From an uncultured bacterium (GTDB lineage: Bacteria > Krumholzibacteriota > Krumholzibacteriia > LZORAL124-64-63): DNA of 64,000 bases. Location of the stretch: contig CAVSZB010000004.1 of NCBI GenBank assembly GCA_963732385.1, positions 128,001 through 192,000 of the forward strand. Direction: 5' to 3'. A program made the position numbers and the translations under genes. Positions 1,271 to 54,169 of this stretch are shown one piece after another. Below the pieces are notes generated by a model that was not told the origin of the DNA, did no database searches, and worked only from the letters and a program-made list of their open reading frames with translations. Position 1 is the stretch's first letter; each line of letters begins with the position of its first letter.

Positions 1271-2936
1271 GACGGTAGAAGTAGACGCCGGCAGCCACGC
1301 GACGGCCGCCTTCATCGGCGCCGTTCCAGGTGACGAAGTGCTCGCCGGCGGCGTGCTCTCCGCGCGCGAGGCGGCGCACCAGGCGCCCCGCCAGATCGTA
1401 CACCGTCAAGTCGGCTGGTCCCGCGACCGGCAGCGAGAAGCGGATGGTCGTGGCGCCGCCGAACGGGTTGGGGGAGTTCAGGCCGAGCGTGGCGGTCATG
1501 ACGCCGGACCGCGGATCGGGCTGAGCCGCGGTCACGTGCGCGAACCAGCCGATATCCTCGAACAGTTCGCGCGCCAGGTCGACATCCTGCGTCAGGTCGA
1601 GGTTGATGGCCGGTTCCATGAGCAGGTTCGGCGTGGCCGAGACATCCCAGTGCGAGATCGAGGAGCCCGCTACGAAGGGATTCGGCGCGTACATCAGGGG
1701 GTGTCCCTGATCGTCGCCGCCGGAGAGCCGGACGGGGTCGAGGGCAATCCTGACCTGTACTCCTGACGCGAGCTGGGCCCGGATCAGGTTGCCGTCCGCC
1801 TGGGTCAAGCTGACGACCGGGATGACGATCGTGGGATCGCTCCCGCCCATGCCGGGCGGCGTGGATGAGATCGCGTTGTCGACGATGATCACGCCGATGG
1901 CGCCGGCGTTCTGGGCGATGAGCACCTTGCTCGTGTAGGTGCAGGTCCCGCGGTCGATCAGCGCGATGTTGCCGGCCATGGCCGCGCCGTTGACAAGCGC
2001 CGTGCAGGCATCGCTGGTGGTGCCGACGCCGTCGTTCGCCTGCACGACCAGACCCGCCACGCCGGGGTCGTTCAGCGGTGCGCCAAAGGCGGCCGTGCCG
2101 GCCAGATAGTCGCCGGCGATCGCGGCGGGGCTGTCCACGAACAGCGTCGGTCGCGGTGAAAGCGTGCCGCGAGCCCGCTGGTGCACGGCCGGGCCGTCCC
2201 ACACCAGATTGCCGGTGTTGATGGCGGAGGCTGCGCGCTCGACGGCGCTCATCTGGTTCCAGTGCAGACCGGTCGTTTTGTCGAGCAGGTACTGATCGAA
2301 GACGGAGGGGAAGCTGCCCAGGTAGCCTCCGGTCGATCCGTTCGTGGTCGTGCTGAAGCCAAGGCCGTGCCCCAACTCGTGCAGAACGACCGCCAGCAGG
2401 TCAATGAGCACCCCTTCGTTGCCGTCGAACCCGTAGTACCAGCCGCTGCCGCTGAGGCAGGTCGGCTGGCCCAGGTTGGCGTTGAAGCGCGCGGTGATGT
2501 CGTAGCCGGCCGGATCCATGTCGTAGCCGGCCCGCTGGTTGCCGAGCGCCACGTGGTACCAGGCGCCGGGAAACTCCGCCCCGGTGAAGTCGCGGAACAC
2601 CGATATCGGCCCGGCGCTGCCCAGGACCGCGCTGGTGGCGGTGCAGGTGAGGGGATCGAAGGCGGCCTGCACGAGGATTGGCACGTGGCCCGGCAGGATG
2701 GCGCCCCAGATGTTGGCCGCGGTCTGGAAGACGTTGAGGCGCTGCTGGCCGATGGTGACGCCGGGGTTGCCGCCGACGGGGGCTGCCGGCGTGGGGTCGT
2801 TGAACCCCTCCCCGGCCCCGTCGATGTTGATGATCGTGATCGTGACGGCGAACGCGGCCGAGGCCGTCAGGGCGAGTCCGAAGGCCAAAGCAACGGCCAG
2901 CGTTCGTCGGCTGGAAGCGCGATGGAGAGCATGCAT
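1221..2936 (-). CDS. Secreted Zn metallopeptidase with PA domain and C-terminal FlgD-Ig / T9SS type A CTD-like domain
   Basis: Signal peptide ending [14 protein letters not shown] zinc motif; PA domain ([26 protein letters not shown]); C-terminus SPNPF...[10 protein letters not shown]...[16 protein letters not shown]. Confidence 0.85.
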
Positions 2937-31196: not shown

Positions 31197-32270
31197 TCAG
31201 CGCCGGGCGCGGATCCACAGCGCGGCGGCGAAACCGATAAAAAGGAAATTGCCGCCCCAGCCGGCCAGGACCGGTGGCAGGGCTCCGCTGTGACCGAGGG
31301 CCCGCCCCAGATTCATGGTCAGGTAGTAGCCGAAGCTGATTATCACCGTCCAGCCGAAACCGGAGGCCACGTTCGTCTTGCGCGGTCCCGACGCGAGCAG
31401 CACGCCCAGCGCCACGACGATCAGGTGGATCCAGGGGAAGGCGATCCGGAACTGCAGGTCGACGGCGCAGGAGGTCGCGTCGGCTCCGGTGCGGCGCAGC
31501 AGGGCGACGCGGCGGGCGAGCTGGCGTACGTTCATGTCATCGGGGCGCACCCGCTCGCGATTGAGCTCCTCCGGGGTGACCGAGAGGAATGGTGCCTCCA
31601 GGCGCCGGAACGGCGTGGCCGATTCCTGGTCGCCCGTGAAGATGCGCCGGGTCCCGTCGAAAAGAATCCACTGGTGGCCGTCCCACTCCGCCCGCGACGC
31701 ATCGAGCCGCTCGACGACGCTGGCGTTGCGCAGCGTCTGCACCGACAGGTCCGTGACCTCCCCCTGCTCGGGGCGGTAGGAGCGGGCGTAGTAGAGCCGT
31801 TGATCCTCGCCGGTGATGGCAATGTCGACGGTGGGGCGGGCGCGGTCGGGGCGGTGGTGGATTTCCACGTGGTAGACGTGATCGCGCGCGCTGTTGGCGC
31901 GTGGCAGGACCCATTCGCTCCAGGCGAGGGAGTAGAAGCAGGCCGCGGCCGCCAGGCCGAGCAGGGGGAGCACGATCTGGGCCAGCGAACGGCCGGCTGC
32001 GAACAGCGCCGTCAGCTCGTTGTAGCGGGCCATCGAGCCGACCGTGAAGAGCGCCGCCATCAGCATCGCGATCGGCAGGCAGAGATCCAGCACCCACGGA
32101 ATCTTGTAGAGGTAGTAACGCCCGATCTGCGCCAGCGTGGCGTGGTTGTCGAGGAAGTTGTCCACGTGCTCGAACAGATCCACCAGCAGGAACAGCACGC
32201 ACGCGCCGGCCAGCGTCGTCAACAGGGTCCGCAGGAAGGAGGAGAGGACCACGCGGTGGATGAGGCTCAT
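31197..32270 (-). CDS. lptG: LPS export permease LptG
   Basis: 3 TM, periplasmic domain, 3 TM; LPIA.L.A...G......NELTAL.AAG; GALPP.LAGW. Confidence 0.85.
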   Translation of the reverse strand: MSLIHRVVLSSFLRTLLTTLAGACVLFLLVDLFEHVDNFLDNHATLAQIGRYYLYKIPWVLDLCLPIAMLMAALFTVGSMARYNELTALFAAGRSLAQIVLPLLGLAAAACFYSLAWSEWVLPRANSARDHVYHVEIHHRPDRARPTVDIAITGEDQRLYYARSYRPEQGEVTDLSVQTLRNASVVERLDASRAEWDGHQWILFDGTRRIFTGDQESATPFRRLEAPFLSVTPEELNRERVRPDDMNVRQLARRVALLRRTGADATSCAVDLQFRIAFPWIHLIVVALGVLLASGPRKTNVASGFGWTVIISFGYYLTMNLGRALGHSGALPPVLAGWGGNFLFIGFAAALWIRARR

Positions 32271-33688
32271 GGGCGTGTCTCCGGGCCGGTCGGTGGCGAC
32301 GCTCCGTCCGTCGCGGTCCACCGGCGCGGCCAGAGGCGCAGCGGAGCCGACTCGCGCACCGCGCGCATGGCAATCGGGATGCCGGTCGCGGCCAACAGCA
32401 GATTGGCGGCCCACATCGCCAGGAACGGGTCGCAGCGTCCGCGATCGGCGAGCTTTTCGCCCCCGATGAGGAATAGGTAGTAGACCAGGTAGATCCCCAT
32501 CGCTGCAGCCACCGAGACCCCGCGTCCGGAACGTGCGGAACCGAGCGAGAGGGGCAGTCCCCACAGCACGAAGACGAGGCAGGCAAAGGGGATGGCGAAC
32601 TTCTTGTGGTACTCGACCAGATACTTGTTCTCGATCTGCCGGCGGCTGTCGCGCAGGTCCGTCTGGACGCGCGCGGAGCCGGCCGCCAGCTCGACCTCCT
32701 GCTGCGCGGCCCGGAGGACAGCCATCCGGAAGCCTTCCGGAGCCGATTCGTGCGGCGTGGTTCCGCGGCCGAGCAGGAGGGTGCGTTCCTGCGGGTCGAG
32801 AAGCCCCCAGACGCGGCGGGTCAGCCGGGTGGCGAGGTCGGTCGTGTTCGCCAGGATCTCGCTCTGGCCGGCGTGCTCCGCGCGGGCGGCGGCCCGCAGG
32901 GCGGTGAGGTTCATCTCGCGGTCCCCTCGGGAGGTGCGGCCCGATGCTTCGAGATCGCGTTCGGTGTTGCGGACGTACAGGTTGTGCTGGACGAAACGGA
33001 CCACGTCGTAGCGGCCCGGATCGCCGTCGTCAGGCAGGCTGTGGATCTCGCCGTCGTGTAGTTCGAGTACCACGGCATCCTCCGCTGGGCGCGGCACGAG
33101 CAGTCCCCAGGTGGCGGTCGTCAGCCGGGGGCGCAGGTCGCCCGGCTGCGCCTTCTCCAGGATCCGCACCCCGCTCAGCCGGCCGGTGCGGTCGTCCTTC
33201 TCCTCGACCCAGATCGTGACCCGGTCATTCAACTCGGCGAACATCTGCGGACGGATCTCCAGCAGCGGCTTTTTCCGATTGATGTCGAACAACAGGTTGA
33301 CTAGCCTGTGGTTCGCTTCCGGCAGGATGTAGTGGTTATAGGCGGTCAGGCTCAGCGCAACCACGACGCCGCCGGCGAGCAGGGGGCGCAGCAGCGCGTC
33401 GAGGCCGATGCCGCTCGCTTTGAGCGCCACGATCTCATGGTCTGCCGCCAACTGCCCCACGCCCATGAGCACCCCGACCAGCACGGCCATTGGTATGGAT
33501 AATGCAAGTGTATATCCCAGGCTCAGGAACAGCACCTCCGTGGCCAGCAGAAAAGGCACCCCCTTGGTGACGAACATCTCCACGTAGCGATAGAGATCAT
33601 TGATGATGAGCACGAAGGTGATGACGAAGAAACCGAAGGCGAACGGTCCAGCCGTGGCCTTGAGCAAGTGTTTGTAGATCAGGTACAT
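32267..33688 (-). CDS. lptF: LPS export permease LptF
   Basis: LSIPMA.L.G.L...G.L.ADHEI.ALKASG; YHKKFAIPFACL; GEKLAD; overlaps the lptG start. Confidence 0.87.
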   Translation of the reverse strand: MYLIYKHLLKATAGPFAFGFFVITFVLIINDLYRYVEMFVTKGVPFLLATEVLFLSLGYTLALSIPMAVLVGVLMGVGQLAADHEIVALKASGIGLDALLRPLLAGGVVVALSLTAYNHYILPEANHRLVNLLFDINRKKPLLEIRPQMFAELNDRVTIWVEEKDDRTGRLSGVRILEKAQPGDLRPRLTTATWGLLVPRPAEDAVVLELHDGEIHSLPDDGDPGRYDVVRFVQHNLYVRNTERDLEASGRTSRGDREMNLTALRAAARAEHAGQSEILANTTDLATRLTRRVWGLLDPQERTLLLGRGTTPHESAPEGFRMAVLRAAQQEVELAAGSARVQTDLRDSRRQIENKYLVEYHKKFAIPFACLVFVLWGLPLSLGSARSGRGVSVAAAMGIYLVYYLFLIGGEKLADRGRCDPFLAMWAANLLLAATGIPIAMRAVRESAPLRLWPRRWTATDGASPPTGPETRP

Positions 33689-33995: not shown

Positions 33996-36900
33996 TTGAG
34001 CGCCAGCGCCGTATTGTTGCGCCGACCCGCCCGCCGCCCTCGCCAGGCCTGGCGGCGGGGGACGCTGCCGCCGCCTGTCGCTCTCATCGTGGCCATTTTC
34101 CTGCTCTTGGGCGCCGGTTCTCTCCGGGCCGAGCCTGTCTACGACGGCCCCATCCTGCCCGGCTTCGATCCCCTTCTGGCCGCCACGAACGATCCGCGCC
34201 TGCTGGGCGCCGGGCGTCTGGAAGCCCGCCAGCGGCTGCTAGCCCAGGGCGTCGATCTGGCTCGCCTCGTCGAACATCCCACGCTCGAAAGCGTGCTGCG
34301 CGCGTACTACGACCGCGAGTGGCGGCGCCACCGGGAGCGGCTCGAGACCACGCGTGAGTCGGATCGCATCATCGGCGTGGAGACGACCTTCGAATACCCG
34401 GTCTGGTTCGTGTTGTTCCCGGCTTCCGAGCCGCTGCCGGACGGTTTCACCTGGTGGCCGCCGCGACCGGTCGACGCGGTGGAGGTCCGCGTCACGATCG
34501 AGCGTCCGGAGATCGCCGCGGAACGACGCGCCGACGCGGCCCGACGCGCGGCGTGGGCAGAGCGCCTCGACGTCCGCTCCGGCAAAGGGGGTCGAGGCGG
34601 GAGCGAGGGGCTGCTCAACCTGACCATCCCCATCAAGTTGCCGCACACGCTCGAAAAGATCATCGGCAAGGGCGAAAAAACCAACATCCGGGTGAGTGGG
34701 CGGGAACACATCGCGATCTCGGGCGAAAGCACGGTCATCAAGCCGTTCGTCGGCAACGAACGGCGCAGCAAGCCGAGCCTCTTCCCGAATCTCGACATGG
34801 AACAGCAACTCCAGATCAATCTCTCCGGCACGATCGGCGAGAAGATCATCATGGAAGTGGCCCACAACAGCGAGGTTATCGGCCCCGGCGGGACGACGAT
34901 CAAGCTCTCCTACCGTGGTACCGAGGACGAGGTCATCAAGACCATCGAGACCGGCGACGTCGGCCTGACCCTGCCAGGCAGTCAGCTGCTCGGTTACAGC
35001 TCGAACAAGTCGGGCCTGTTCGGCGTCAAGGTGACCGGGCAGATGGGGCGTGCCGATTTTGCTGTCGTGGTCAGCAAGCAGAAGTCGGAGAGCGCCTCCA
35101 AATCGTTCAACAGCAAGGGAGGCGAGGTCGCCGAGCACATCATCGAATGCCAGAACTACGTGAGCAACCGGTTCTTCTATCTCGACCTCCAGGCCGGATC
35201 CACCGCGTTCGACGGCGTGTTCGACCTCCCCGGGCGACCGGCGGGCTGGACCATCGATCCGCAGTCGGTCCACGTGTACCAGTTCGTGGCGAACGCGCCG
35301 CCGTCGGCGAGCGCGGTCGAGAATGTGGCCCTGTACCTGGATGGCACCGGACGCTGGGATCTCACGGCGGCGCCGTCCCCCTTTCTGGGGCAGCGCTTCA
35401 ACGAGGTGGAATGGGATCCTCTCAACGACCAGAACAACCGTATGATCGCCCTGGACCTGACGCACTCGTACGAAGATGGCGCCATCCTGGGCGTGATCTA
35501 CGACGTGGTGGACGCCGCCGGGACGCTCGTGTACGAGGTGGGTGACGACCCTGGGATCGACGAAGGCAATCGCGTGCCCCTCGGGCAGGAGGGGAAAGCG
35601 TACCTGCGCATGAAGTTGCTCAAGCCGGACTTATACACGGAGCAGAATTCACGCACCTGGTACTATGCGATGCGCAATATCTACCCGCTCGGCGGCACGA
35701 ACATCGATTCTGATTCGTTCGAGTTCGAAATCGAGTTGAACTCAGCCTCGCTCATTTCCCCCGAACTGGACACCGCCAACCAGAAATCGTGGATCCGGAT
35801 CTTCGGGCTGGATCGTCTCGACGAATCCAGCCAGCCGGGACACGACGAAGTCGCGGACAAGCAGGATCCCCTGCTGTTCGACCTGGAGAAAGGCCTGCTC
35901 AAGTTCCCCCGTAATATTACGCGGCCTTTCGCGATGTCCGACTCGACCGTGTACATCGAGAACGCCGGGGGTGCGGGCGAATTCGACTGGGAGAACTCGC
36001 TGCTGAGGATCAACCGCGTGCCGCAGATCTACGACTATAAGGAGCCGGCCAGCGAGCGTGGTCGCTACAACCGTTTCCGACTGGTCGCCCGTCATGCCGC
36101 GGCCAGCGGCACGATCGACCTGCGCGACTCCAACATCGAGGAGGACTCGGAGACGGTCATTCTCGACGGGCAGACCCTGACCAAGGGTTCGGATTACGAC
36201 ATCGACTATACCTTCGGCCAGGTCACCCTCAAGGGGGATGCCGCCGCCCGCCTGAGCGCGGACTCGCAGATCAGCGTGAACTACCAATACGCGCCGTTCA
36301 TGGGGGGCGGCAACAGCAACCTGCTCGGCTTCAACCTGGGGTTCGAACTCGGCCGTCAGAGCCATCTGTCCACTACCTGGCTCTATGAATCGAGCCAGAT
36401 CGCAGGGCACAAGGCGAAGCTCGGCGAGGAGCCGAGCCGGACCCTCGTGGGGAACCTCAACCTGACGCACACGCTCAGACCGACGTTCCTCACGAGCGCG
36501 GCCAATTTCCTCTCCCGCCGGGACTCCGACAAGGAGAGCAGTCTCCAGCTCAGCGGGGAGATCGCCGGCAGCGTGCCCAATCCCAACACCCAGGGCGATG
36601 TGTTTCTGGAGGATTTCGAAGGCATTGATGCATCGGACCTCATGTCGGTCAGTCGCCTTTCCTGGATGTGGGGCAGTGCGCCGGCGCAGGGGCGCGACCC
36701 GGAATACGTAAACGCCGTCAACGATGCGCGCGACTTCACGCCACAGGACCGCGTGGACGTGCGCTGGTTCCTGCCCAAGGACACCGTGCAGCGCCGCTTC
36801 CTCAACCCCGATCTGCGCGAGGCCGAGGGCAAGGAGCCTCAGCAGGTGCTGCAGGTCCGGATGGACGCCGGAGGCGCCGGCTGGGGGAATTCGTCCTGGG

Positions 36901-39900
36901 GCGGCATCATGCGCGGCCTCGGCCGCAGCGGCATTGATCTCTCGAAGGCGCAGTTTCTCGAATTCTGGGTGAACGACTTCCGTCCGCAGCAGGCGGTCCG
37001 TCGCGGCAAACTGCACATCGACTTCGGCTATATCGACGAGGACTTCTTCTGGCCCGTGCGCAACGGCGCTCTGCTCACGGACACCTGGGAACGCGAGGAC
37101 GCCAACGCTGATGGTATCTTCACGGCAGCAACTGAGGATATGGGCTTCGACCGGGAATTGAACGGACCGGGCGTCCCCGACTACTACGATCCCGCGTTCA
37201 ACGATTACAGCAACCCCTATCCGTTCATCAATGGGACCGAGCGCAACCTGCGCGAGGATACCGAGGATCTCGATGGCGATACCCAGCTGGATCGTCTGAA
37301 CGGCTACAACAGCATCACCGTCGATCTCGCCGACTCCGCCCTGGTGGATGTGCTGCGCGATTATGCCCCGGACCAGGTGGCGGGGCTCGAGGCCGCGGGG
37401 CAGGCCTGGCGCAAATTCCGCATCCGGCTCAACGATGCCCGCACGGTGTCGCCGCCGAACGGAACCTCGCCCCAGATCCGGCAGGTGACGCACGTGCGCT
37501 TCTGGTACGAGGACGGCGACGTCGGTGCGCCGGCCCAGACGCAGATCCAGCTGTCCGAGATCAAGTTCCTGGGCAGTCGTTGGGAGCGCGAGGGGCTGCG
37601 CAAGAACGTTTCGGAGCAGCTGCTGGCGCCGGCCGAGCGGGGGCCGCGCGAGGCCTTCTTCCTGGGCGAGGTAAACAACAAGGAGAACCCCGACTACTAT
37701 TCGCCCTTCAATGTGCACGAGGAGAATCGCATCCAGGAGAAGGAATCGTCGCTGGTGTTCGACTTTGCCGAGCTCGAGCGCGACCACCTGGCGCGCGCCA
37801 GCCGCTATGTCTCGCCGCGCGGCGACGACTACACCCTGTACAGAAACATCTCCTGGTACTGGTTCAACCCGCGCGCCGACCTGAGCGACGTGGACCTGTT
37901 CTTCCGCGTCGGCTCCGACTCGCTCAACTACTACGAGGTACGATGGCGGTTCGACGAGAGCCCCGGCGCGCGCACCGGCTGGAAGGAGATCAGCCTGGGA
38001 CTGGCGGAGTTGAGCAACGCCAAGCTCGATCCGGTGGACACCGAATACGGCTGGATCGCGACCACCGTGCCGGACCAGGTGACGGGTCAGCCCTACCGGG
38101 TGCGCGTGGTGGGCAGGCCAGATCTGCGCCGCGTGAAGCGCTACTACTTCGGGGTCGTCAACGATCGGCGGGACCTGCCGGTCAGCGGTTATTTCTATTT
38201 CAACGACGTGCGGCTCGAGGCGGTGAAACGAGAGAAGGGCCTGGCCGAACGGGTGGCGGCGCGCCTGAACATGGCGGACGTCATCAAGGTGGACTTCGAC
38301 TGGTCCAAGCGCGACGCGGATTTCCACGGTCTCGGCACAACTCGCGGCCAGGGCTTCCAGAACCAGGATTGGAGTCTCACGGCCAGCCTCAGGGCGGACG
38401 ATTTCGTGCCGCTGCTGGGATTCCAGGTCCCGATCAACCTCTCGCGACGCCAGGGCATCAGTCGTCCAAAGTACCTGACGAACGACGACGTCGAACTGAT
38501 CGACGAGGATATCCGCAACGCGCAGTCCGGGGTCGATACGCGCGAAAGCTATAGTGTCAGCGTGGCTCGCCAGCCATCGCGCGCCGCAGTGCCGCGCTAC
38601 CTGATTGACCCGTGGCGGTTCTCGCTCAGCGGCGCACGATCGAGCCGTCTCGGGCCGACGGACCGTCAGTGGCAGAGCAATTCACAGGCGACCGTCATCT
38701 ACGATCTGCGCGTCCTCGGCAACTACCGGTTGGGGGACTACCTCTTCTTCGGCGCTGTGCCGCTGCTCAGCGATCTGGCGTTGGCGCCGCGCAAGATCAC
38801 CCTTGGCGGTTCGGTCGGCAGTTCGCGGCAGACGAGCGAGTCGATCGCCCTGAACGGTCTGGTGACGACGCGGCCGATGCAGTACGCGCGGCGGGGCAAC
38901 TTCAACGCCGCGGTGGAGTACGCACCGCTGCGGCTCGCGCAAATCAGCCTGAATCTGAAATCCGATCGCGATTTCCTGCGCCCGCAAACGGGCGCCTTCG
39001 GACTGAATGTCGGGCGGGAGTTGTACTACACGCAGGGTGTCCAGGTGCGGTTCAGCCCTCCCAATGCAGAGCGGTTGCCCGACACCTGGCTGTTGGCGCC
39101 GTTGCGTTACGGGGTGAGCGCCCTGAATTCCATGCGTCCTTCCGTGACCTTCAACGGCCAGTTTGCCGCCAACCGCGATCCGAGTCAGCGCCAGGCGGGC
39201 GATCCGGAGAATGTCCGCTCGGTGTCCAACAGTGGCGACTGGGATGTCCGCCTGAGCCTGCCGATCGACACCTTCATCAAAAGGCGCTTCCCCAATCGTC
39301 GCTCGGTTTCGGACGACCAGCGGCGCCAGACTATCGAGCGTCAGCGCCGTCTGGGGCGGCGGGGCGGCGGCACCGCCGGCGGGGAGGAGTCGCCGGGCGA
39401 CGGGGGGATGCCGCCCGGTCCGACACCGTCGGGAGGCGACGCGTCCCCGGATTCCCTGCAGGCGCCCGGGTCGGGCGGGTCGGACGCGAGCGAACCGGAG
39501 TCAGTCGCCACCTCGCCGTCGGAAGAGGAACTGCTCACCCCCGAGGATCGGCAGCGCCGTGAAGATGAGGCCCTGCTCGAACAGGCGCGCGAATTGGAGG
39601 AACGCGAACGCGCCGAGAGCGCCAGGCGCGCGTCGCCCGACACGTCCTCTGCGCCGGCGGAGAGGGGGGGAGGCCGCCGCTGGCTGCGGGTGCCTGATCC
39701 GCGCCAGGCAGCGATCCACCTCCTGCGCGGCCTGAGTCCCGTGCAGGCGTCCTACAGCCTGCGCAAGCAGAGCCAGTACAGCCGCCTCGCCGGGGCCGAC
39801 GAATTCTGGTATCGCACCGGGCTCTCGTCGCGGCTCGAGCAGCCCGACACCGCATACGTGTCGGCCCAGTTCAGCGAGCGCCGTACGAAATCGCTTTCGA

Positions 39901-40616
39901 GCAGCCTCAAACTCGCGCGCAGCGTAACCGCCGACGTGAAGTTCAGTCAGACCATCAGCAACCAGGACGGGGGCGGTCTGCGGCGCGATAATTACGAGGT
40001 CATCTGGCCTGATCTGCGACTGGCGATTGCCGGCGTGGAGCGGTGGCGGGTGTTCGGGGGGGGGGGCGGCGACGGCTGGTTCCGTTCCTCGAACATCGAC
40101 GTGGGCTACAAGTTCGCCAAGAACGTGAACGGGGCGACGTCCACGACCTACAACCCGAGGATGTCAACGTCGATCACGCCGCGCTGGAATTTCACCTTCG
40201 CCAGCGGAATGAGCGCTTCTCTGAACGGGGGCCTGACGCACGATCGGACCATCACCAACGGCACGATCGTCGATGCGCGGCGCCTGAACGTGGGGTTGCA
40301 GGTGCGTCACAGCTTCCGCGCCGAGAAGCTGCTGGCGAAGGTGAACCTGTACCGGCCGGGAAACACCCCGACCATCAATTTGGACTTCGGCGTGAACTAC
40401 AGTCGCGACACCAGCGAGCGTCTCGTGCCGGGCGCCACTGTCGCCGACGCGCGCACCGGGAATTCGCGGCTCGGGATCAATCCGCGGTTCAGCTACCAGG
40501 TGACCCGGAATCTCTCGGGCGCGCTGCGGTTCGTGTTTTCGCGGAACAAGGTGGATGCGACCAACACCAGCACCATTACCTTCGGTCTCGGTCTGGAGGC
40601 GACATTTGTCTTCTAA
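33996..40616 (+). CDS. sprA: SprA/Sov-family giant outer-membrane beta-barrel (T9SS translocon homolog), 2206 aa
   Basis: Signal peptide; SprA-like motifs QINLSGTIGEKI, IKLSY.G.EDEVIK.IE.G.V...LPGSQL, GLFGVK, DY.IDY..G, FLEDFEG, WGGIMR, EFWV.D, DTEDLDG; beta-strand C-terminus ending in Phe. Start uncertain by a few codons. Confidence 0.88.
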   Translation: MSASAVLLRRPARRPRQAWRRGTLPPPVALIVAIFLLLGAGSLRAEPVYDGPILPGFDPLLAATNDPRLLGAGRLEARQRLLAQGVDLARLVEHPTLESVLRAYYDREWRRHRERLETTRESDRIIGVETTFEYPVWFVLFPASEPLPDGFTWWPPRPVDAVEVRVTIERPEIAAERRADAARRAAWAERLDVRSGKGGRGGSEGLLNLTIPIKLPHTLEKIIGKGEKTNIRVSGREHIAISGESTVIKPFVGNERRSKPSLFPNLDMEQQLQINLSGTIGEKIIMEVAHNSEVIGPGGTTIKLSYRGTEDEVIKTIETGDVGLTLPGSQLLGYSSNKSGLFGVKVTGQMGRADFAVVVSKQKSESASKSFNSKGGEVAEHIIECQNYVSNRFFYLDLQAGSTAFDGVFDLPGRPAGWTIDPQSVHVYQFVANAPPSASAVENVALYLDGTGRWDLTAAPSPFLGQRFNEVEWDPLNDQNNRMIALDLTHSYEDGAILGVIYDVVDAAGTLVYEVGDDPGIDEGNRVPLGQEGKAYLRMKLLKPDLYTEQNSRTWYYAMRNIYPLGGTNIDSDSFEFEIELNSASLISPELDTANQKSWIRIFGLDRLDESSQPGHDEVADKQDPLLFDLEKGLLKFPRNITRPFAMSDSTVYIENAGGAGEFDWENSLLRINRVPQIYDYKEPASERGRYNRFRLVARHAAASGTIDLRDSNIEEDSETVILDGQTLTKGSDYDIDYTFGQVTLKGDAAARLSADSQISVNYQYAPFMGGGNSNLLGFNLGFELGRQSHLSTTWLYESSQIAGHKAKLGEEPSRTLVGNLNLTHTLRPTFLTSAANFLSRRDSDKESSLQLSGEIAGSVPNPNTQGDVFLEDFEGIDASDLMSVSRLSWMWGSAPAQGRDPEYVNAVNDARDFTPQDRVDVRWFLPKDTVQRRFLNPDLREAEGKEPQQVLQVRMDAGGAGWGNSSWGGIMRGLGRSGIDLSKAQFLEFWVNDFRPQQAVRRGKLHIDFGYIDEDFFWPVRNGALLTDTWEREDANADGIFTAATEDMGFDRELNGPGVPDYYDPAFNDYSNPYPFINGTERNLREDTEDLDGDTQLDRLNGYNSITVDLADSALVDVLRDYAPDQVAGLEAAGQAWRKFRIRLNDARTVSPPNGTSPQIRQVTHVRFWYEDGDVGAPAQTQIQLSEIKFLGSRWEREGLRKNVSEQLLAPAERGPREAFFLGEVNNKENPDYYSPFNVHEENRIQEKESSLVFDFAELERDHLARASRYVSPRGDDYTLYRNISWYWFNPRADLSDVDLFFRVGSDSLNYYEVRWRFDESPGARTGWKEISLGLAELSNAKLDPVDTEYGWIATTVPDQVTGQPYRVRVVGRPDLRRVKRYYFGVVNDRRDLPVSGYFYFNDVRLEAVKREKGLAERVAARLNMADVIKVDFDWSKRDADFHGLGTTRGQGFQNQDWSLTASLRADDFVPLLGFQVPINLSRRQGISRPKYLTNDDVELIDEDIRNAQSGVDTRESYSVSVARQPSRAAVPRYLIDPWRFSLSGARSSRLGPTDRQWQSNSQATVIYDLRVLGNYRLGDYLFFGAVPLLSDLALAPRKITLGGSVGSSRQTSESIALNGLVTTRPMQYARRGNFNAAVEYAPLRLAQISLNLKSDRDFLRPQTGAFGLNVGRELYYTQGVQVRFSPPNAERLPDTWLLAPLRYGVSALNSMRPSVTFNGQFAANRDPSQRQAGDPENVRSVSNSGDWDVRLSLPIDTFIKRRFPNRRSVSDDQRRQTIERQRRLGRRGGGTAGGEESPGDGGMPPGPTPSGGDASPDSLQAPGSGGSDASEPESVATSPSEEELLTPEDRQRREDEALLEQARELEERERAESARRASPDTSSAPAERGGGRRWLRVPDPRQAAIHLLRGLSPVQASYSLRKQSQYSRLAGADEFWYRTGLSSRLEQPDTAYVSAQFSERRTKSLSSSLKLARSVTADVKFSQTISNQDGGGLRRDNYEVIWPDLRLAIAGVERWRVFGGGGGDGWFRSSNIDVGYKFAKNVNGATSTTYNPRMSTSITPRWNFTFASGMSASLNGGLTHDRTITNGTIVDARRLNVGLQVRHSFRAEKLLAKVNLYRPGNTPTINLDFGVNYSRDTSERLVPGATVADARTGNSRLGINPRFSYQVTRNLSGALRFVFSRNKVDATNTSTITFGLGLEATFVF

Positions 40617-40659
40617 GGTTATTTCGGTCGGTGGTGTCGCCACGCCGCGGGGGACCGCA

Positions 40660-41595
40660 GTGGTGGCGGTGCTGCTGCTGCTGGTGCTCGCTCCGCTCGC
40701 CCCCGGCGCGCGCGCCGTGCCGCCCGCGCCCGTACCGGTCCCCGCCTTCTCGGGCGCCCGCGCCATGTCCTGGCTGCGCGTCCAGTGCGCTTTCGGGCCG
40801 CGTCATCCCGGATCGCCGGGGCAGCATCGTCTGCGGCGCCTGATCAGCGCCCACGCCGACTCGCTCGGGCTGCCCTGCGCGCCGGTCTGTTTCACGCTGG
40901 ACGATCCCTACGGCGACGGTCGGCTCGAAGTCTGTAATTATGTGGTCTCGGCGGGGCCGTCGGGAGGGCAGCGGCTCTGGATCGCCGCGCATTACGACAC
41001 CCGCCCCCGCAGCGACCGCGACCCCGACCCGCGGCTGGCCGCCCTCCCCCTGATCGGCGCGAACGACGGTGCGAGCGGCGTGGCCGTCCTGCTGCACCTG
41101 GCGGAACTGCTGGCGGCGCACCCCCCGGCGCGCGGTGTGGATCTCCTCTTTCTCGACGCGGAGGACTATGGACGGGAGGGGGATCCGGCCAATTACTGCC
41201 TCGGTGCGACCCGTCTGGCGGCGCACTGGCGCGACTTCGGCAGCCCTCTGGCCGGCGGCAGTCCTGAGGGGCTCGTACTGCTCGACATGGTCGGAAAACG
41301 GGATCTGGCCATCCCCATGGAAGGGTATTCGCTGCGTCTGGCCGGTGCGTGGACGCGAACTGTCTTCGACCGGGCCGCAGAACTCGGGCTGGACGCCTGC
41401 GTGCCCGCGGAGGGGCCCTCGGTCTGGGACGACCATGTGCCGTTCCTGCGGGCAGGGATACCGGCTGTCGATCTGATCGATTTCGACTATCCGCAGTGGC
41501 ATACCTCGCGGGATACGCCGGAGATGTGTGACCCGGCCAGCCTGGAGCAGGTCGGCCGCCTGGTGACCGATCTCTGCTACCGGCCGGGGCCCTGA
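40660..41595 (+). CDS. M28-family Zn enzyme, glutaminyl cyclase-like
   Basis: Signal peptide; AHYDTRP..DRDPD, GANDGASGV, DAEDYG, LLDMVG, DDHVPF, IDFDYP.WHT..D. Confidence 0.82.
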   Translation: MVAVLLLLVLAPLAPGARAVPPAPVPVPAFSGARAMSWLRVQCAFGPRHPGSPGQHRLRRLISAHADSLGLPCAPVCFTLDDPYGDGRLEVCNYVVSAGPSGGQRLWIAAHYDTRPRSDRDPDPRLAALPLIGANDGASGVAVLLHLAELLAAHPPARGVDLLFLDAEDYGREGDPANYCLGATRLAAHWRDFGSPLAGGSPEGLVLLDMVGKRDLAIPMEGYSLRLAGAWTRTVFDRAAELGLDACVPAEGPSVWDDHVPFLRAGIPAVDLIDFDYPQWHTSRDTPEMCDPASLEQVGRLVTDLCYRPGP

Positions 41596-41762: not shown

Positions 41763-42476
41763 TTGCTGGTCTTGGATAAGGATGCGCTCCGGCGCAGGAT
41801 CACCGATCTCATAGAGAGTGAACTCGCCGCGGTCGGGTATGAACTGCTCGATGTGCGACTGTTTACCGGCGGTGGCCGTCTGCACGTGCGGGTATTCTTG
41901 GATCGCGAGGGTGGGATCGGGCTGGATGGTTGTGTCGCGGCGGGCCGGACGATCGGAATGCTGCTCGAAGAGGCGGCGTTTCTCGGCGAGGCCTATGTGA
42001 TCGAAGCCTCGTCGCCCGGTGTGCGGCGACCTCTGCGACTGCCGGCGCATTTCGCGGCGGTGATCGGGCAGCGGATCGAGTTGCGCGTCGGCCGGGGGCG
42101 GCAGACGACGCGGCGCGGGGTGCTGCTGGAGGTCGGTCCGGAGGGGTTGCGCCTACGCGCCGAGGCCGGTCCGGCGGCGCCGACCGGGGACGACGAGGAA
42201 GCGGATGCGGCCGGGGCTGTGGGTGAGACACCGGTTTTGACGCCGGTCGTGCTCCCCGACACGCCAAAGGCGGCGGAGGCGCGGTCGGAGGAGACGGAGT
42301 TTACCGTGGCGTGGGATGAACTCGCCGCGGCGAACCTCGATCCTGATTTCGACATTCAGACGCTTATCAACGCCGACCGACGGCGTCGGCGGGACGAGCG
42401 CAAGACGCGGCAGGGCCAGGCCAGGGAGGCGCGGGAGGCGCGCCTGGCGCGAAGGCGGCGTCCCAGGGCGGAGTAG
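41763..42476 (+). CDS. rimP: Ribosome maturation factor RimP
   Basis: GYEL.DV, VRVFLD..GGI.LD.C, Y.IE.SSPG..RPL....F....G; first gene before nusA; start approximate. Confidence 0.88.
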   Translation: MLVLDKDALRRRITDLIESELAAVGYELLDVRLFTGGGRLHVRVFLDREGGIGLDGCVAAGRTIGMLLEEAAFLGEAYVIEASSPGVRRPLRLPAHFAAVIGQRIELRVGRGRQTTRRGVLLEVGPEGLRLRAEAGPAAPTGDDEEADAAGAVGETPVLTPVVLPDTPKAAEARSEETEFTVAWDELAAANLDPDFDIQTLINADRRRRRDERKTRQGQAREAREARLARRRRPRAE

Positions 42477-42531
42477 GGCGGCGCGGGCGGACCGTCCGTG
42501 GCGCGCGACAGTTTTACGGGAGCGGTGCCAG

Positions 42532-44049
42532 ATGGATTACAATGTCCTTGACGCCCTGGCGATGATCACGCGGGAGAAGTCCGTCGACCGCCGGATCGTC
42601 ATTGAATCGCTTGTGGCCGGCCTGCAGTCCGCCGCCAAGAAGAAGGTGGGGGCCGATGCCGTGGTCGATGCGCGTGTCGACGAAACCACCGGCGAGATGG
42701 TGGTCGAGCAGGTGAAAATCGTCGTGGAGCAGGTGGAGGTCGCCGACGCCCAGATCTCGCTGGCCGAAGCGCAGGTCGAATTCGGCGACCAGGTCCTGCC
42801 GGGCGACGAGGTGCGCTGGGAACTGCCGCTGGAGACTTTCGGCCGCAATGCGATCCTGGTTGCCAAGCAGATTCTCGTGCAGAAGGTGCGCGAGGCCGAG
42901 CGGAATCAGATCTTCGAGGACTTCAAGGATCGCGCCAACGAGATCGTGGTCGGCACGATCCAGCAGGTGGACCGCGGGAACGTGCTCGTGAACCTGGGCC
43001 GCGTGGAGGCTCTGCTGCCGTACCGCGAGCAGATCCGGGGCGAGAAGTACCACCAGGGCAAGACGGTCCGGGCTCTGATCATCGAAGTGCTGGACAACGC
43101 CAAGGGTCCGCAGGTCATCCTCTCGCGCAGCCACCCCGGGTTCCTGAAGTCGCTGTTCGCGCAGGAGGTGCCGGAGATCCAGGAGGGCATCGTCGAGATC
43201 AAGGCGGTGGCCCGCGAGCCGGGCACCCGTTCCAAGATCGCCGTCGTATCGCGCGATGACCGCGTGGACGCCGTCGGCTCGTGCGTCGGCATGAAGGGAA
43301 GCCGCGTGCAGGCGGTTACCCGTGAACTGGCCGGCGAGCGGATCGACATCGTGCCGTGGAGCGCCGAGCCGTCCCTGCTCATCAGCCGCGCGCTCAGCCC
43401 GGCCGAGGTCAGTTCGATCGTGCTGGACGAGGAGCGGCACTCCGCCACGGTCATCGTCAGCGACGACCAGCTTTCCAAGGCGATCGGCAAAGAGGGCAAG
43501 AATGTCCGCCTCGCCGCCAAGCTTACGGAGTGGAAGATCAACCTCGTCTCGGCCCGCGAGCATCACCTGCGCCAGCGGATCACGCAGGAGATGTCGATGG
43601 AGCTTGAGGAGATGTCGGGCGTGACCGCCCGCATCTCCGGGCTGCTGGGCGAGGCCGGCATCTCCACGATCGCGGAGTTGGCGGAGGCGACCATCGGGCA
43701 GCTCGAGGCTATACCCGGCATCGGCCCCAAGACGGCCGAAGCGCTCGCCGGCACGGCCCGCGCCACGCTGGACGAACTGCAGCAGCAGATCGAGGCGACC
43801 GTGAAGGAGGAGCTGGCCCGGCTGGCAGCCGAGGAGAAACCGCTCTTCGACGAGAGCGTCTTCAGCGGGAACGAGGTCGTCCCGGATGGCACTCCGGCCG
43901 AGCCGACCGGCCCGGAGGATGTCCCGATGCCCGAGGGGAATATCTTCGCGGGGTTCGATGAGCTGGTCGATCCCGAGGGTGAGCGCCCGGCCGACGAGCC
44001 GCCGGCGCCCAAGGTCGATCCGTTCGCCGGATCGGGCCTGGACGATTGA
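42532..44049 (+). CDS. nusA: Transcription termination/antitermination factor NusA
   Basis: FGR.A...AKQ...QK.REAER, EVPEI..G, AREPG.RSKIAV, GSCVG..GSRV, AIGK.GKNVRLA; C-terminal HhH. Confidence 0.97.
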   Translation: MDYNVLDALAMITREKSVDRRIVIESLVAGLQSAAKKKVGADAVVDARVDETTGEMVVEQVKIVVEQVEVADAQISLAEAQVEFGDQVLPGDEVRWELPLETFGRNAILVAKQILVQKVREAERNQIFEDFKDRANEIVVGTIQQVDRGNVLVNLGRVEALLPYREQIRGEKYHQGKTVRALIIEVLDNAKGPQVILSRSHPGFLKSLFAQEVPEIQEGIVEIKAVAREPGTRSKIAVVSRDDRVDAVGSCVGMKGSRVQAVTRELAGERIDIVPWSAEPSLLISRALSPAEVSSIVLDEERHSATVIVSDDQLSKAIGKEGKNVRLAAKLTEWKINLVSAREHHLRQRITQEMSMELEEMSGVTARISGLLGEAGISTIAELAEATIGQLEAIPGIGPKTAEALAGTARATLDELQQQIEATVKEELARLAAEEKPLFDESVFSGNEVVPDGTPAEPTGPEDVPMPEGNIFAGFDELVDPEGERPADEPPAPKVDPFAGSGLDD

Positions 44050-44059
44050 GCGCGCGGCC

Positions 44060-44386
44060 GTGACGGACGGAATCGGGCCCCGGCTGCTCGGCCTGTTGGG
44101 CCTGGCACGGCGGGCGGGGAAGCTCGCCGTGGGGACCTCGGCGGTGGAGCGGATGATCCACGAGGGTCGGCGGCCGCTGCTGATCATCGCGAGCGACGCC
44201 GGGGAGGGACCGCGGGCGCGGTTACTGCGCCTTGCGCCGGTGCGGGCGGTGCTCGCGGATGTCGTGAGCAGGGACGATCTGGCGATGGCGCTGGGACGCA
44301 AGGAATTGACGGTGGTCGCCGTGAGCGACCCGGACTTCGTGCAGGGGATCGAGCGGCTGGCCGGGGAGGCCGGCGGCCGGAGGTGA
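44060..44386 (+). CDS. L7Ae/YlxQ-family RNA-binding protein
   Basis: LLGLLGLARRAGKL..G, IIASDA, L..ALG; between nusA and infB. Confidence 0.85.
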   Translation: MTDGIGPRLLGLLGLARRAGKLAVGTSAVERMIHEGRRPLLIIASDAGEGPRARLLRLAPVRAVLADVVSRDDLAMALGRKELTVVAVSDPDFVQGIERLAGEAGGRR

Positions 44387-44392
44387 GCCGTC

Positions 44393-47257
44393 TTGGCGAG
44401 GAAGCTCAGAGTTTACGAACTCGCGAAGCACTACGGCGTGGAAAGCCCGACCATCATGGCCATCCTGCGCCAGATGAAGGCCGAGGCGAAGAGCCACATG
44501 AGCGTCGTCGAAGATGACGCGGTGGATCGCATCCACGCCCGCTTCCAACGCGAGCGAGAGCTGGCGCGGCTCAACTATGCCCGGGCCCACGGGCTGGATC
44601 CCGAGAAACTGAAGCATGTGGCCAGCCTGCGCGAGTTGCCGCGACCGGAGCCGGCCGTGCAGGAGGAGAAGGCGCCCCCGACAGCCAGGAAGGCGCCGGC
44701 CCGGAAGGCGCCCGCGAAGAACAAGATCGTCATCATCAAGAAGGCAGGCACGCGCACGGCCGTGACGCTGGCGAAGGCCAAGGCTCGCGAGCGTGACGAG
44801 ACGTCGGCTGCCGAGCGGTCGGCGGCGCGCGATACGAAGGTCGTCAAGAAACTGGTGCGACGTTCGCTGGATCCGCCTCCACCGCCTCCCACGCCGGCGC
44901 CTCCCGAGATCGCCGTGGTCCCTGATTCGCCGGCCCCGGCGTCCGAGGCGACGACCGTCGCCGCGGCGCCGGACATGCCGGTGGATCCGGAGGCCCCGTT
45001 CGCGCCGCCGGTCGAGGCCGCGCCCGAAGTCGCCGCGTCCGAGACGCCTGCGGTCGGCGATGAGTCGGTTGCGACCGCGCCGACGGACGTTCCGGCCGAG
45101 CCGGCCAAGCCGGCGACTCCGGTCCGACGCGGCGCCCGGATCGTCCGCCTCGGCCCTGGGGCGCCCACCAAGACGACGTACAGCCACCCGCGGGCGGCGT
45201 TGATCGATCCGGGCGTGTCGGGTGAATTGCCGGTGCCGGGCGAGGTTGCCGCGGCCGGGTTGGGCAAGGACGCCAAGGATTCCGTGAAGGAATCGGTCAA
45301 GGCTGCCATCCGCAAGCGGAAGGATGCCAAGGCCCAGGAAGAGGCGGAGCAGGTCCTGCGCAAGCGGGTCCGGCATCGCCGCAAGAAGATCGACGAGGCC
45401 GAGGTCGCCAAGAACGTCAAGCAGACGCTGGCGCAGATCGAGACCGGTCCGGGGCGTCGCCATCGGGCTCGCCGGTCGGATCAGGCGGAAGAGACGGTTG
45501 AAGAGGGAGATCTGTTGCGCGTGACCGAGTTCATCACTGTCCAGCAGATGGCCGAGAAGCTGGAGGTGCAGGCTCGCGACGTGATCGGCAAGCTGTTCGC
45601 GCTCGGCATAATGGCCACGATCAACCAGCGGCTTGACCACGACCAGATCGAGCTGGTGGCGTCGGAGTTCGAACGCGACGTCGAGTTTCTCGGCGAGGAT
45701 GACGAGATCCTGGCGGAGGAGGAGATCCAGCCCGAGGATCTGGTTCACCGCGCACCGGTAGTGACGGTCATGGGGCACGTCGACCACGGCAAGACGTCGT
45801 TGCTCGACACCATCCGTCGTACCAACGTGATCGCCGGCGAGGTGGGCGGCATCACGCAGCACATTGGCGCCTACCGCGTGGAAACACCGGGCGGGCCGAT
45901 CACCTTCCTCGACACGCCGGGCCACGAGGCCTTCACCGCGATGCGCGCCCGCGGCGCCCAGGTGACCGATATCGTCATCCTGGTGGTGGCGGCCGACGAC
46001 CGGATTATGCCGCAGACGGTCGAGGCGATCAATCATGCCAAGGCTGCCGGGGTGCCGCTTATCGTCGCCATCAACAAGATCGACCTGCCGTCGGCGCGCC
46101 CCGAGCTCGTGAAGCAGGACCTGCTGCAGCACGGCATTGTCCTGGAGGACTTCGGCGGCCAGGCGCTCAGCGCCGAGATCTCGGCCAAGAAGAACATCAA
46201 CGTGGACAAGCTGCTCGATCTCGTGCACCTGCAGGCGGATGTGCTCGAACTCAGGGCGAGTCCCAAGGGCCACGCGCGCGGCACGGTCGTGGAGGCTTCC
46301 AAGGAACCGGGTCGCGGCGTCCTCTTCACTGTGCTGATCGACAAGGGCACGCTGAAGGTCGGGGACAATTTCGTGTCCGGGATGCAGGACGGCAAGGTGC
46401 GTGCGCTGCATGACGAGCGCGGTGACGCCCTGCAGGAGGTCGGTCCGGGTGAGCCGGCGGTCATCATGGGCGCCAACGATGTGCCTGAGGCCGGCGACCG
46501 TTTCAATGTTGTCGAGAGCGAGCGCGAGGCCCGGGACATCGCCACGCGGCGCCGCACCCTGCAACGGCAGCAACAGCAGGCGCGGCCCAAGCGTCAGGTC
46601 AACCTGGACAACCTCGCCGCCATGATCAGCAGCCAGGCGCTCAAGGAATTGCCCATCATCGTCAAGGGCGATGTGGCCGGTTCCGTGGAGGCCCTCTGCG
46701 ATCAGTTGATGCAGCTGAACACGGAAGAGGTCCAGATCAAGATCGTCCACAAGGCGGTGGGCGCGGTCACGGAATCGGATGTCCTGCTGGCCGCGAACAC
46801 GGGCGCGATGATCGTCGGGTTCCATCTGCGTCCCGGCTCGACCGTGCGCGAGAAGGCGAAGCAGGAGGGGGTGACGATCGAGGTCTTCGACATCATCTAC
46901 GAGGCCGTCGACACCCTGAAGAAGGCGATGGCCGGCCTGCTCGGCACGATCGAGCGCGAGGTGCCCACCGGCTCGGCGGAGGTCCGTATGGTCTTCACCA
47001 TCCCGAAGACCGGCCAGATCGCCGGCTCGTACGTCACCAACGGTTCGATCCTGCGCAACTCTCGGGCGCGACTGGTGCGCAGCGAGGTCATGATCTTCGA
47101 GGGCAAGATCAACTCGCTGAAGCGGTTCAAGGACGACGCGCGCGAAGTCCAGACCGGCTTCGAGTGCGGTATCGGACTCGAGAACTTCCACGACCTGCAG
47201 CCCGGGGACGTCATCGAGACCTACCGCATCGAGGAGATCGTCCGCACCGAGTTGTAG
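44393..47257 (+). CDS. infB: Translation initiation factor IF-2
   Basis: RVYELAK N-domain, [47 protein letters not shown]. Confidence 0.98.
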
Positions 47258-53521: not shown

Positions 53522-54169
53522 ATGTCGAAGCGCCATCGCGCCCCGTTCTCCGTCTGCCTGTTGTGTGCCGCCGCGCTCGGAGTGACTTCGTCATCCCCGG
53601 TCGCAGCGGCGGTCGTGCTGTCTGAAATCCTCGGCGACCCGGCCCGCGACTGGAACGGCAGCGGTGCCGTCGACAGCCGTGACGACGAATGGGTCGAAGT
53701 GCTCAACACCGGTCCCGACCCGGTCGATCTCGCGGAATACTATCTGCGCGATGCGCTGGGGACCGAGCCGCATCTGCGTCTGTCCGGCCTGCTGGCGGCG
53801 GGGGAGGTGCGCGTCTTCCACGGCAGCGACGCGGTAGCCTGGCAGACGGCGCAGGAACTGACTCTCACCGGGCTCTCGCTCAACAACGCCGGCGACACCG
53901 TCGAATTGCACCGCGGCGTTCCGGGCGAGCCCGGTTCGCAACTGGTCGACGTCTACATCTATCGCGACCATGAGGCGGAGGACGATCGTTCGAGCGCCCG
54001 TCAGGCGGATGGCACCTGGATCCTGTTCGACTACTACCTGCCGTACACCGGCGCGCTGACACCGGGCGGCAGTGGCTGCGCCCCTTCGCCCGGCGCCGTG
54101 AACGTCTGCGAAGGCAATGTCGCCGACGAGCGGTCGAGCTGGGGGGGGCTCAAGAGCGACTACCGCTGA
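53522..54169 (+). CDS. Secreted lamin-tail-domain-like protein with C-terminal SWGxLKxxYR motif
   Basis: Signal peptide; VVLSEI..DP...D.NG.G......DEWVEV.N.G...VDL..Y.L.D; LNN.GDTV.L; SPG..N; ends SSWGGLKSDYR. Confidence 0.78.
   Translation: MSKRHRAPFSVCLLCAAALGVTSSSPVAAAVVLSEILGDPARDWNGSGAVDSRDDEWVEVLNTGPDPVDLAEYYLRDALGTEPHLRLSGLLAAGEVRVFHGSDAVAWQTAQELTLTGLSLNNAGDTVELHRGVPGEPGSQLVDVYIYRDHEAEDDRSSARQADGTWILFDYYLPYTGALTPGGSGCAPSPGAVNVCEGNVADERSSWGGLKSDYR

Follow-up and report, generated by a model that had tools for sequence, protein, structure and literature searches.

A probable type IX secretion system in Krumholzibacteriota with SprA, PorU and PorV but no detectable GldKLMN motor

In current T9SS (type IX secretion system) models, the GldLM motor and the GldKN track are essential for ejecting the carrier-cargo pair from the outer-membrane translocon SprA (PMC10994853; this and the other papers cited were available to us in part, and what we say of them is limited to those parts). 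A 64,000-nucleotide stretch of DNA from an uncultured bacterium, referred to here as the window, raises the question of whether such a system can do without them. It encodes a 2206-residue SprA-like protein followed on the same strand by an M28-family enzyme, and an earlier annotation made from the window alone (the original prediction) took the pair as the possible core of a T9SS with a divergent motor. We examined the gene itself, the host genome (3.82 Mb in 9 contigs, of which C2, C3, C7 and C8 are named below; 95.8% complete; ~68% G+C) and a phylum sample of 121 genomes, each at least 85% complete, from nine families; the 120 others all belong to the host's class. Feature coordinates are collected in Table 1.

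The protein scored 451.9 bits against the SprA model TIGR04189 (cut-off 200), which passes the curated threshold, and it also matched PF14349. On a PDB sequence search, the Flavobacterium johnsoniae SprA entries 6H3I and 6H3J were its sole matches. Alignment profiles of its two halves, built from 29 and 32 relatives, likewise matched only SprA in the PDB (E 5e-89 and 1.6e-23), the 29-relative profile covering residues 1282-1897 of 6H3I and the 32-relative profile residues 168-1249. The halves were then modelled with AlphaFold2 (mean pLDDT 81 and 71) and compared by Foldseek; the top four entries for both were 8GL6, 8GL8, 6H3I and 6H3J (E 1e-26 to 3e-47), with the next matches at E 1e-5 or weaker. 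Since SprA entries head both lists, the predicted fold is of the SprA type. The N-terminal model has 11 long strands and the C-terminal model 25, and the sum of 36 is the strand number of the F. johnsoniae SprA barrel; a closed barrel is not demonstrated by this count, because the halves were folded apart, TM-scores reached only 0.23-0.39 and confidence in the first seven strands is low. Taken together, these results confirm that the gene encodes a full-length SprA/Sov translocon, with the terminal Phe and the probable signal peptide that had been noticed at the outset. The gene itself is not new, as NCBI already names its close relatives SprA.

The host SprA is colinear over most of its chain with F. 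johnsoniae SprA (6H3I, 6H3J, 8GL6, 8GL8) and Porphyromonas gingivalis Sov, and it shares with the former the predicted fold, the ~36 long strands and the terminal Phe. In contrast to F. johnsoniae SprA, however, it is ~200 residues shorter, only 11-18% of residues are identical in the structural alignments, its N-terminal domain cannot be aligned, and its last 300 residues are matched by predicted fold only. A Bacteroidota SprA scores 3177 bits on TIGR04189 and the host protein 452, which indicates that the divergence is large. The N-terminus reads as a basic n-region and a hydrophobic h-region, with probable cleavage between SLRA and EP at residue 45/46. The domain that follows occupies the SkpA/SprE docking position of F. 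johnsoniae SprA and is of similar size; it is 12-25% identical across families, compared to 41-51% for the barrel segments. We dropped a by-eye likeness of this domain to the N-terminus of Parabacteroides SprA, the one Bacteroidota sequence compared, because no significant alignment was obtained. The first seven predicted strands align to Bacteroidota SprA with an hhalign probability of 98.5%, and the low-complexity insertion at residues ~1770-1900 has pLDDT <50 across much of its length.

The closest relative of this SprA that has a name (85% identity) bears the label Candidatus Krumholzibacteriia, which many further relatives share, and none of the labels listed is Bacteroidota. Krumholzibacteriota is the best reading of the host lineage on these labels, in line with the proposal of a non-Bacteroidota member of the FCB (Fibrobacterota-Chlorobiota-Bacteroidota) group. 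In a quick SprA tree the submitter labels were mixed (Krumholzibacteriia, Latescibacterota and, in many cases, 'uncultured Fibrobacteraceae') and formed no clades, and the tree was not used beyond the nearest labels.

The original prediction recognised no por or gld genes in the window. This holds for the window's called genes but not for the genome, in which porU and porV lie on another contig, porU directly upstream of porV. The host PorU scored 416 bits, just under the cut-off of 420, is full length (profile positions 5-1077) and has the GHG and SC motifs. The neighbouring PorV scored 186.5 bits against NF033709 (cut-off 90) and stayed below the strict PorV equivalog model (114 against 250). 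Five PorV-family genes are over the cut-off in the host genome, and several adjoin genes for large tailed proteins. Across the phylum sample, SprA and the PorV family were each found in 121/121 genomes and PorU in 120/121, over the cut-off in 101 of the 120. Given PorU and PorV elsewhere in the genome, the original notion of a T9SS core needs widening: the SprA is real, but it is not a pore alone, and what the genome probably encodes is a T9SS without its energy chain.

The porU-porV order and a gene for a 1163-residue protein recur in 7/7 genomes fetched from other families. After porV come genes for an M6-like protein with a T9SS-type C-terminal domain (CTD), a 305-residue protein, a DUF5683 protein, an NHL protein, the 1163-residue protein and an Omp85-like protein. 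The 1163-residue protein was considered as a possible second SprA, but only ~100 of its columns align with SprA (hhalign 95.7%; TIGR04189 28 bits); it has no PDB match, and its Atlas neighbours are unnamed, with an SprA-family cluster at 0.87. We also observed that the porU frame (C7:221462-225964) opens with ~135 residues that correspond to a small membrane protein encoded separately in other families, and is either a fusion or a read-through frame. Another member of the PorV family is encoded in two overlapping frames (C8:113170-114080), a split that may reflect an assembly error or pseudogene status; it comes after a lamin-tail protein whose end is CTD-like and is followed by a helix-hairpin-helix outer-membrane protein and then by a BamG-like barrel. 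At C8:357009-367039, a gene for a 2694-residue tailed surface protein lies directly upstream of one for a 649-residue PorV-family protein with an N-terminal PorV-family barrel and a TPR-like C-terminal end.

The host genome also encodes proteins with T9SS cargo tails. Of 67 TIGR04183 matches in it, 63 are C-terminal, and 59 belong to proteins with a signal-peptide-like N-terminus (a crude rule with a background of 43%). A CTD profile built from the genome itself gave 94 matches, 84 of them C-terminal. Two types of candidate cargo had been proposed within the window. The first, a predicted metalloprotease, carries the strongest CTD match of the host genome. The second, a lamin-tail protein, has no T9SS CTD match; it is one of 16 small proteins in the host genome that end in SWGxxKxxYR-like tails. 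The strict pattern [ST]WGx[VIL]Kxx[YF]R directly before the stop occurs in 31/41 phylum genomes, and reversed-pattern controls gave 0. This ten-residue tail looks like an undescribed C-terminal sorting signal.

The tails also bear on whether SprA here secretes at all. It might instead serve outer-membrane biogenesis or a few dedicated partners, the tails being FlgD-like Ig domains with another role. Two findings would fit such a role: in every cross-family locus examined, sprA has lptFG and housekeeping genes as neighbours, and a true flgD is among the flagellar genes of the host genome. We nevertheless regard this as very improbable: the tails sit at the C-termini of unrelated signal-peptide proteins, whereas the true FlgD match is internal, and PorU and PorV are retained in the Bacteroidota order.

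In contrast to the outer-membrane components, no motor or ring component was detected. GldM (two models), GldL and GldN were over the cut-off in 0/121 genomes each, as was GldK, whose best match reached 100.5 bits against a cut-off of 350 and covered the generic FGE domain only. To calibrate the searches, we collected metagenomic gldKLMN operons, with DNA for 80 loci out of 119 matches. On two metagenomic Bacteroidota-type operons, the NCBIfam models put GldK, GldL and GldM over the cut-off in 2/2 and GldN in 1/2. We also built our own profiles from 74 GldL, 51 GldM, 43 GldN and 53 GldK sequences; leave-out versions, trained on sequences <25-33% identical to the held-out member, recovered the held-out GldL, GldM or GldN in 24/24 tests (E 1e-28 to 1e-131). 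On the 38,170 six-frame open reading frames (ORFs) of the host genome, the full profiles gave best E values of 0.65 (GldL), 12 (GldM) and 7.7 (GldN), and in 8,825 six-frame ORFs of 61 Krumholzibacteriota-type loci none of the four proteins was matched at E<=1. Of seven weak GldM or GldL matches examined in the phylum, six were SMC, Skp and soluble coiled coils, with the membrane segment unmatched; one match reached E 9e-9 but was confined to the coiled-coil part. Collectively, the pattern of a phylum that keeps SprA, PorV and PorU with GldKLMN undetected is well supported; the search for Por proteins thus came out positive for PorV and PorU and empty for PorK/L/M/N.

An ordinary T9SS whose GldK/L/M/N equivalents, or another motor, have diverged past profile detection would give the same result. 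The low TIGR04189 score of the host SprA shows how far a component can drift here, FGE-fold proteins occur in 104/121 genomes, and all absence results rest on profiles trained on Bacteroidota, so that a motor beyond their recognition is conceivable. We consider this unlikely, however. GldL and GldM have short membrane segments that are highly conserved, and these matched nothing among the host six-frame ORFs (best E 10 and 15). A topology screen of the host genome for adjacent GldL-GldM-shaped genes, which recovers 66/74 and 49/51 of the known proteins, yielded 3 pairs, none resembling GldL/GldM. The FGE-domain genes are ruled out as GldK by score and context: 5/5 host FGE loci have no K-L-M-N-like context, and the GldK model gave no match at E<=1e-5 in 17/121 genomes, several of which have a completeness of 95-98%.

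We consider it probable that the host has a motor-divergent T9SS, in which the outer-membrane half is kept and the GldL/M motor and GldK/N ring are lacking; this judgement leaves the energy source aside, and it agrees with the possibly divergent motor originally proposed. The system would work like a T9SS but departs from the canonical one in the motor and the ring. Besides the training of the profiles, several points weigh against this reading. The positive controls are at the protein level rather than a Bacteroidota whole genome; SprE/PorW, PorG, PorZ and PorQ had no dedicated models and were covered by a crude TPR scan and a tail-only PorZ match; the sampled genomes are kin, so that 121 of them do not equal 121 independent tests; and CTD-dependent export across the outer membrane is predicted here from F. 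johnsoniae.

On that model, cargo would cross the inner membrane by Sec and then fold. The folded cargo would enter the SprA pore, its CTD would bind PorV at the lateral opening without energy, and the PorV-cargo pair would then be released, after which PorU would cleave the CTD and anchor or free the cargo. In F. johnsoniae, binding of the CTD to PorV inside SprA takes no energy, carrier-cargo release needs energy, and cargo stays stuck at the translocon if the motor is missing (PMC10994853). Release is thus the step for which a driving force would have to be found.

The best single guess for this force is an ExbB-ExbD-ExbD(-TonB) proton motor whose genes share an operon with those for a PorV-like barrel and for a GWxTD protein of the periplasm (Table 1). 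The operon, which is followed by TolC and ABC genes, is conserved across the phylum. Its ExbB paralog, mostly single-copy, and its GWxTD protein were each found in 119/121 genomes, and the GWxTD gene is directly upstream of ExbB in 112/112 same-contig cases. The PorV-like gene is present in 13/13 assessable loci (14 were fetched, one cut by a contig end) and the GWxTD gene in 12/13; the tailed protein is found in 9/13 (one partial), and the PorV-like gene is kept in the 4/13 without it. ExbBD and GldLM are, moreover, both 5:2 ion-driven motors. The GWxTD protein, which was also considered as a possible substitute for the plug or SprE, gave no PDB match. Via TonB and/or this protein, such a Ton-type motor might release PorV-cargo from SprA. 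We hold this only tentatively, because other findings point to an ordinary Ton system. The operon starts with a TonB-dependent transporter, the usual client of such a motor, in 12/13 loci; a TonB match was obtained in 11/14 loci and is missing from three; and a second operon with a transporter, a PorV-like barrel and a tailed protein (C3:443513-452145) has no motor genes. With ~8 TonB-dependent transporters in the host genome, a general Ton motor is expected to be conserved regardless. The operon also adjoins neither sprA nor porU-porV, lying on a different contig in the host and tens of kb away where a contig is shared. Its transporter was compared with the one after Parabacteroides sprA, and only generic N-terminal similarity was seen.

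Release without any motor appears almost as likely, and it is similarly doubtful. Here the PorV-cargo pair would dissociate from SprA thermally, and PorU cleavage together with surface attachment would make the step one-way. The energy-free loading of cargo in F. johnsoniae (PMC10994853) and the presence of PorU in nearly all genomes are consistent with this. A simpler cycle would also fit the single copy of Skp in 5/5 genomes and the plug domain PF17116, which was found in 0/5 genomes at E<=0.1, a search made without a positive control genome. The trapping of F. johnsoniae cargo without its motor (PMC10994853) argues against it, and means that the carrier-translocon interface would need to be weaker in the host. 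The probability left by the Ton-type motor, motor-free release and a hidden motor lies with other routes.

The M28 gene behind sprA was found as originally described, ~40 bp downstream on the same strand. Its probable start, according to a codon-model gene caller, is the GTG 43 bp past the sprA stop; the longest frame opens at 40555 and overlaps sprA. The product is a predicted glutaminyl-cyclase-like enzyme, whose closest PDB sequences are the Bacteroidota M28/glutaminyl cyclase (QC) entries 3GUX, 3TC8, 6QQL, 7CJE and 6QRO (E<=4e-37). D136, E168, D169 and D209 are invariant in 29/29 homologs, and D258, W280 and H281 are present in 27/29, the remaining 2 not covering these positions. Several of these residues are common to M28 aminopeptidases too, and for those beyond the zinc ligands we assume roles. 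The host enzyme keeps the Asp/Asp/His zinc-ligand pattern of the Bacteroidota QCs (6QQL, 6QRO, 7CJE, 4FUU/7D1D), together with Glu168, Asp209, Asp258 and Trp280-His281; the zinc ligands are those given for human QC (PMC11312887). Unlike the Bacteroidota QCs, the host copy has a signal of the signal peptidase I (SPI) type and its genome has no Bacteroidota-style Q-rule. On the side of likeness, homologs from four other families have lipoprotein-like signals.

The original prediction linked this enzyme to the SprA system, and as a neighbour it is indeed conserved: the gene is directly behind sprA in 99/101 genomes with both on one contig and in 22/22 long-enough loci (in 7 of the remaining genomes the two are on different contigs, and 5 are unplaceable from the matches listed). 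It could accordingly have a functional tie to the T9SS, maturing its cargo or its components, which we think improbable. The metK-lptGF-sprA-rimP-nusA block is conserved as a whole, and the lptGF and rimP-nusA order is as conserved as M28. With the host query, no M28 gene was found in 8/121 genomes, 4 of which are among the 9 genomes of one family that keeps sprA. Gln at position +1 of the predicted cleavage site is rare, with ~47/546 SPI proteins (8.6% against a background of 3.3%) and 7/56 CTD proteins by a crude predictor, and the sections of PMC5837995 available to us report predicted Gln+1 of >48% in nearly all Bacteroidetes and argue against pyroglutamate controlling T9SS targeting. Given its position within a conserved block of housekeeping genes and the 8 genomes without a match, the gene is probably not a core T9SS part, and we treat it as a co-inherited envelope-protein maturation enzyme.

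Table 1. Locations of the genes and protein segments discussed (plain numbers, positions in the window; C7, host contig)
Feature	Location	Strand	Remarks
SprA/Sov-type T9SS outer-membrane translocon	33996..40616	+	2206 aa; TTG start; C-terminal ...EATFVF
Probable Sec signal peptide, residues 1-45	33996..34130	+	Read from sequence; TTG start unproven
N-terminal domain, presumably periplasmic, residues 46-216	34131..34643	+	Helices, beta-hairpin, long helix; model pLDDT ~40-80
First seven predicted barrel strands, residues ~230-372	34683..35111	+	DSSP on model; low confidence
Low-complexity acidic/Gly-Pro insertion, residues ~1770-1900	39303..39695	+	Poorly conserved; alignment fill 0.46-0.87
M28-family glutaminyl-cyclase-like enzyme (predicted)	40660..41595	+	PF04389; conserved sprA neighbour
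lptF-lptG	31197..33688	-	Divergent from sprA; upstream in 9/9 cross-family sprA loci
rimP-nusA-(ORF)-infB housekeeping operon	41763..47257	+	nusA downstream in 9/9 cross-family loci
Candidate cargo: signal peptide, PA-domain metalloprotease-like, type A CTD	1221..2936	-	TIGR04183 40.4 bits, cut-off 23
Lamin-tail-domain secreted protein, SWGxxKxxYR tail	53522..54169	+	PF00932; no T9SS CTD match
porU-porV	C7:221462-227058		Profile matches
1163-aa probable outer-membrane protein of the porU-porV operon	C7:233555-237046		Followed by Omp85-like gene
TonB-dependent transporter, tailed 945-aa protein, PorV-like barrel, GWxTD protein, ExbB, ExbD, ExbD, TonB	C7:708384-719703		

Some further observations concern the surroundings. 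In several families the interval between lptG and metK/sahH holds a gene for a 470-570-residue protein, which matches GWxTD at one locus and may be similar at the others; in the host family, a PKD-domain lipoprotein gene (30380-31057) is found there instead. The window also encodes a multiheme cytochrome c with c7/c3-type Pfam matches and a lipoprotein-like N-terminus (51852-53201, minus strand), and a single frame that fuses RbfA to a DHH/DHHA1 phosphoesterase (47270-48676, plus strand). Elsewhere in the genome, the flagellar cluster has a motA-motB-like pair of its own, and another such pair is located outside it (C3:92566-94441; C7:445345-467432). Beyond 100 kb, contig C2 has a codon-model fit of 0.65 compared to ~0.8, and a gene set near 30-48 kb looks foreign; C2 may belong to the 2.65% contamination of the genome. 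One RNA-library run contained contigs of relatives across the sprA region, which may be DNA carry-over and were not used as evidence.

Compared to the T9SS of Bacteroidota, the host shares SprA, the porU-porV order and type A CTD cargo, and its extra PorV-family barrels beside large tailed proteins recall the dedicated carrier-cargo pairs described in the available part of PMC12618676. It differs in having no detectable GldK/L/M/N, no plug domain found in the five genomes searched and one Skp, in carriers that score as the PorV/PorQ family rather than PorP/SprF, and in its flagellar genes. T9SS-like signals or genes outside core Bacteroidota are already on record, as PMC11285876 states that six further FCB phyla may have a T9SS as well and PMC6851124 reports CTD-like tails in Fibrobacter. 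As far as the available parts of these accounts go (Chlorobiota, Ignavibacteriota, Rhodothermota, Gemmatimonadota, Cloacimonadota and Fibrobacterota; PMC11285876, PMC5837995, PMC6851124), they contain no inventory of components, make no mention of Krumholzibacteriota and do not take up the question of a missing motor. A full-text literature search, in which most papers were represented by the start of their abstracts, returned no T9SS in Krumholzibacteriota and none without GldKLMN; older surveys or reviews may tabulate incomplete sets of T9SS genes from allies of Bacteroidota. No relevant term matches came from the portions seen of PMC11495043, PMC8542988, PMC7323717, PMC4454575 and bioRxiv 10.1101/2023.07.10.548433.

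A phylum that keeps SprA and PorV and nearly always PorU, with no motor detected in any sampled genome, is a natural experiment on the need for the motor and on the origin of the T9SS. The candidates for the missing step are the ExbBD/TonB/GWxTD operon, the 1163-residue protein of the porU operon and motor-free release. The system is also the likely path by which this widespread group of uncultured bacteria secretes dozens of enzymes. In its strongest form, which we put forward as a conjecture that may well fail, the T9SS of Krumholzibacteriota would work without GldKLMN, with release driven by ExbBD via a GWxTD adaptor or motor-free, and its core, perhaps together with an SWGxxKxxYR tag, would predate the gliding machinery. 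The T9SS has been inferred to have first arisen within the gliding machinery of Bacteroidota (PMC12635249, from the part available); if the conjecture is true, the outer-membrane core would be older than that machinery, and this inference would be reversed.

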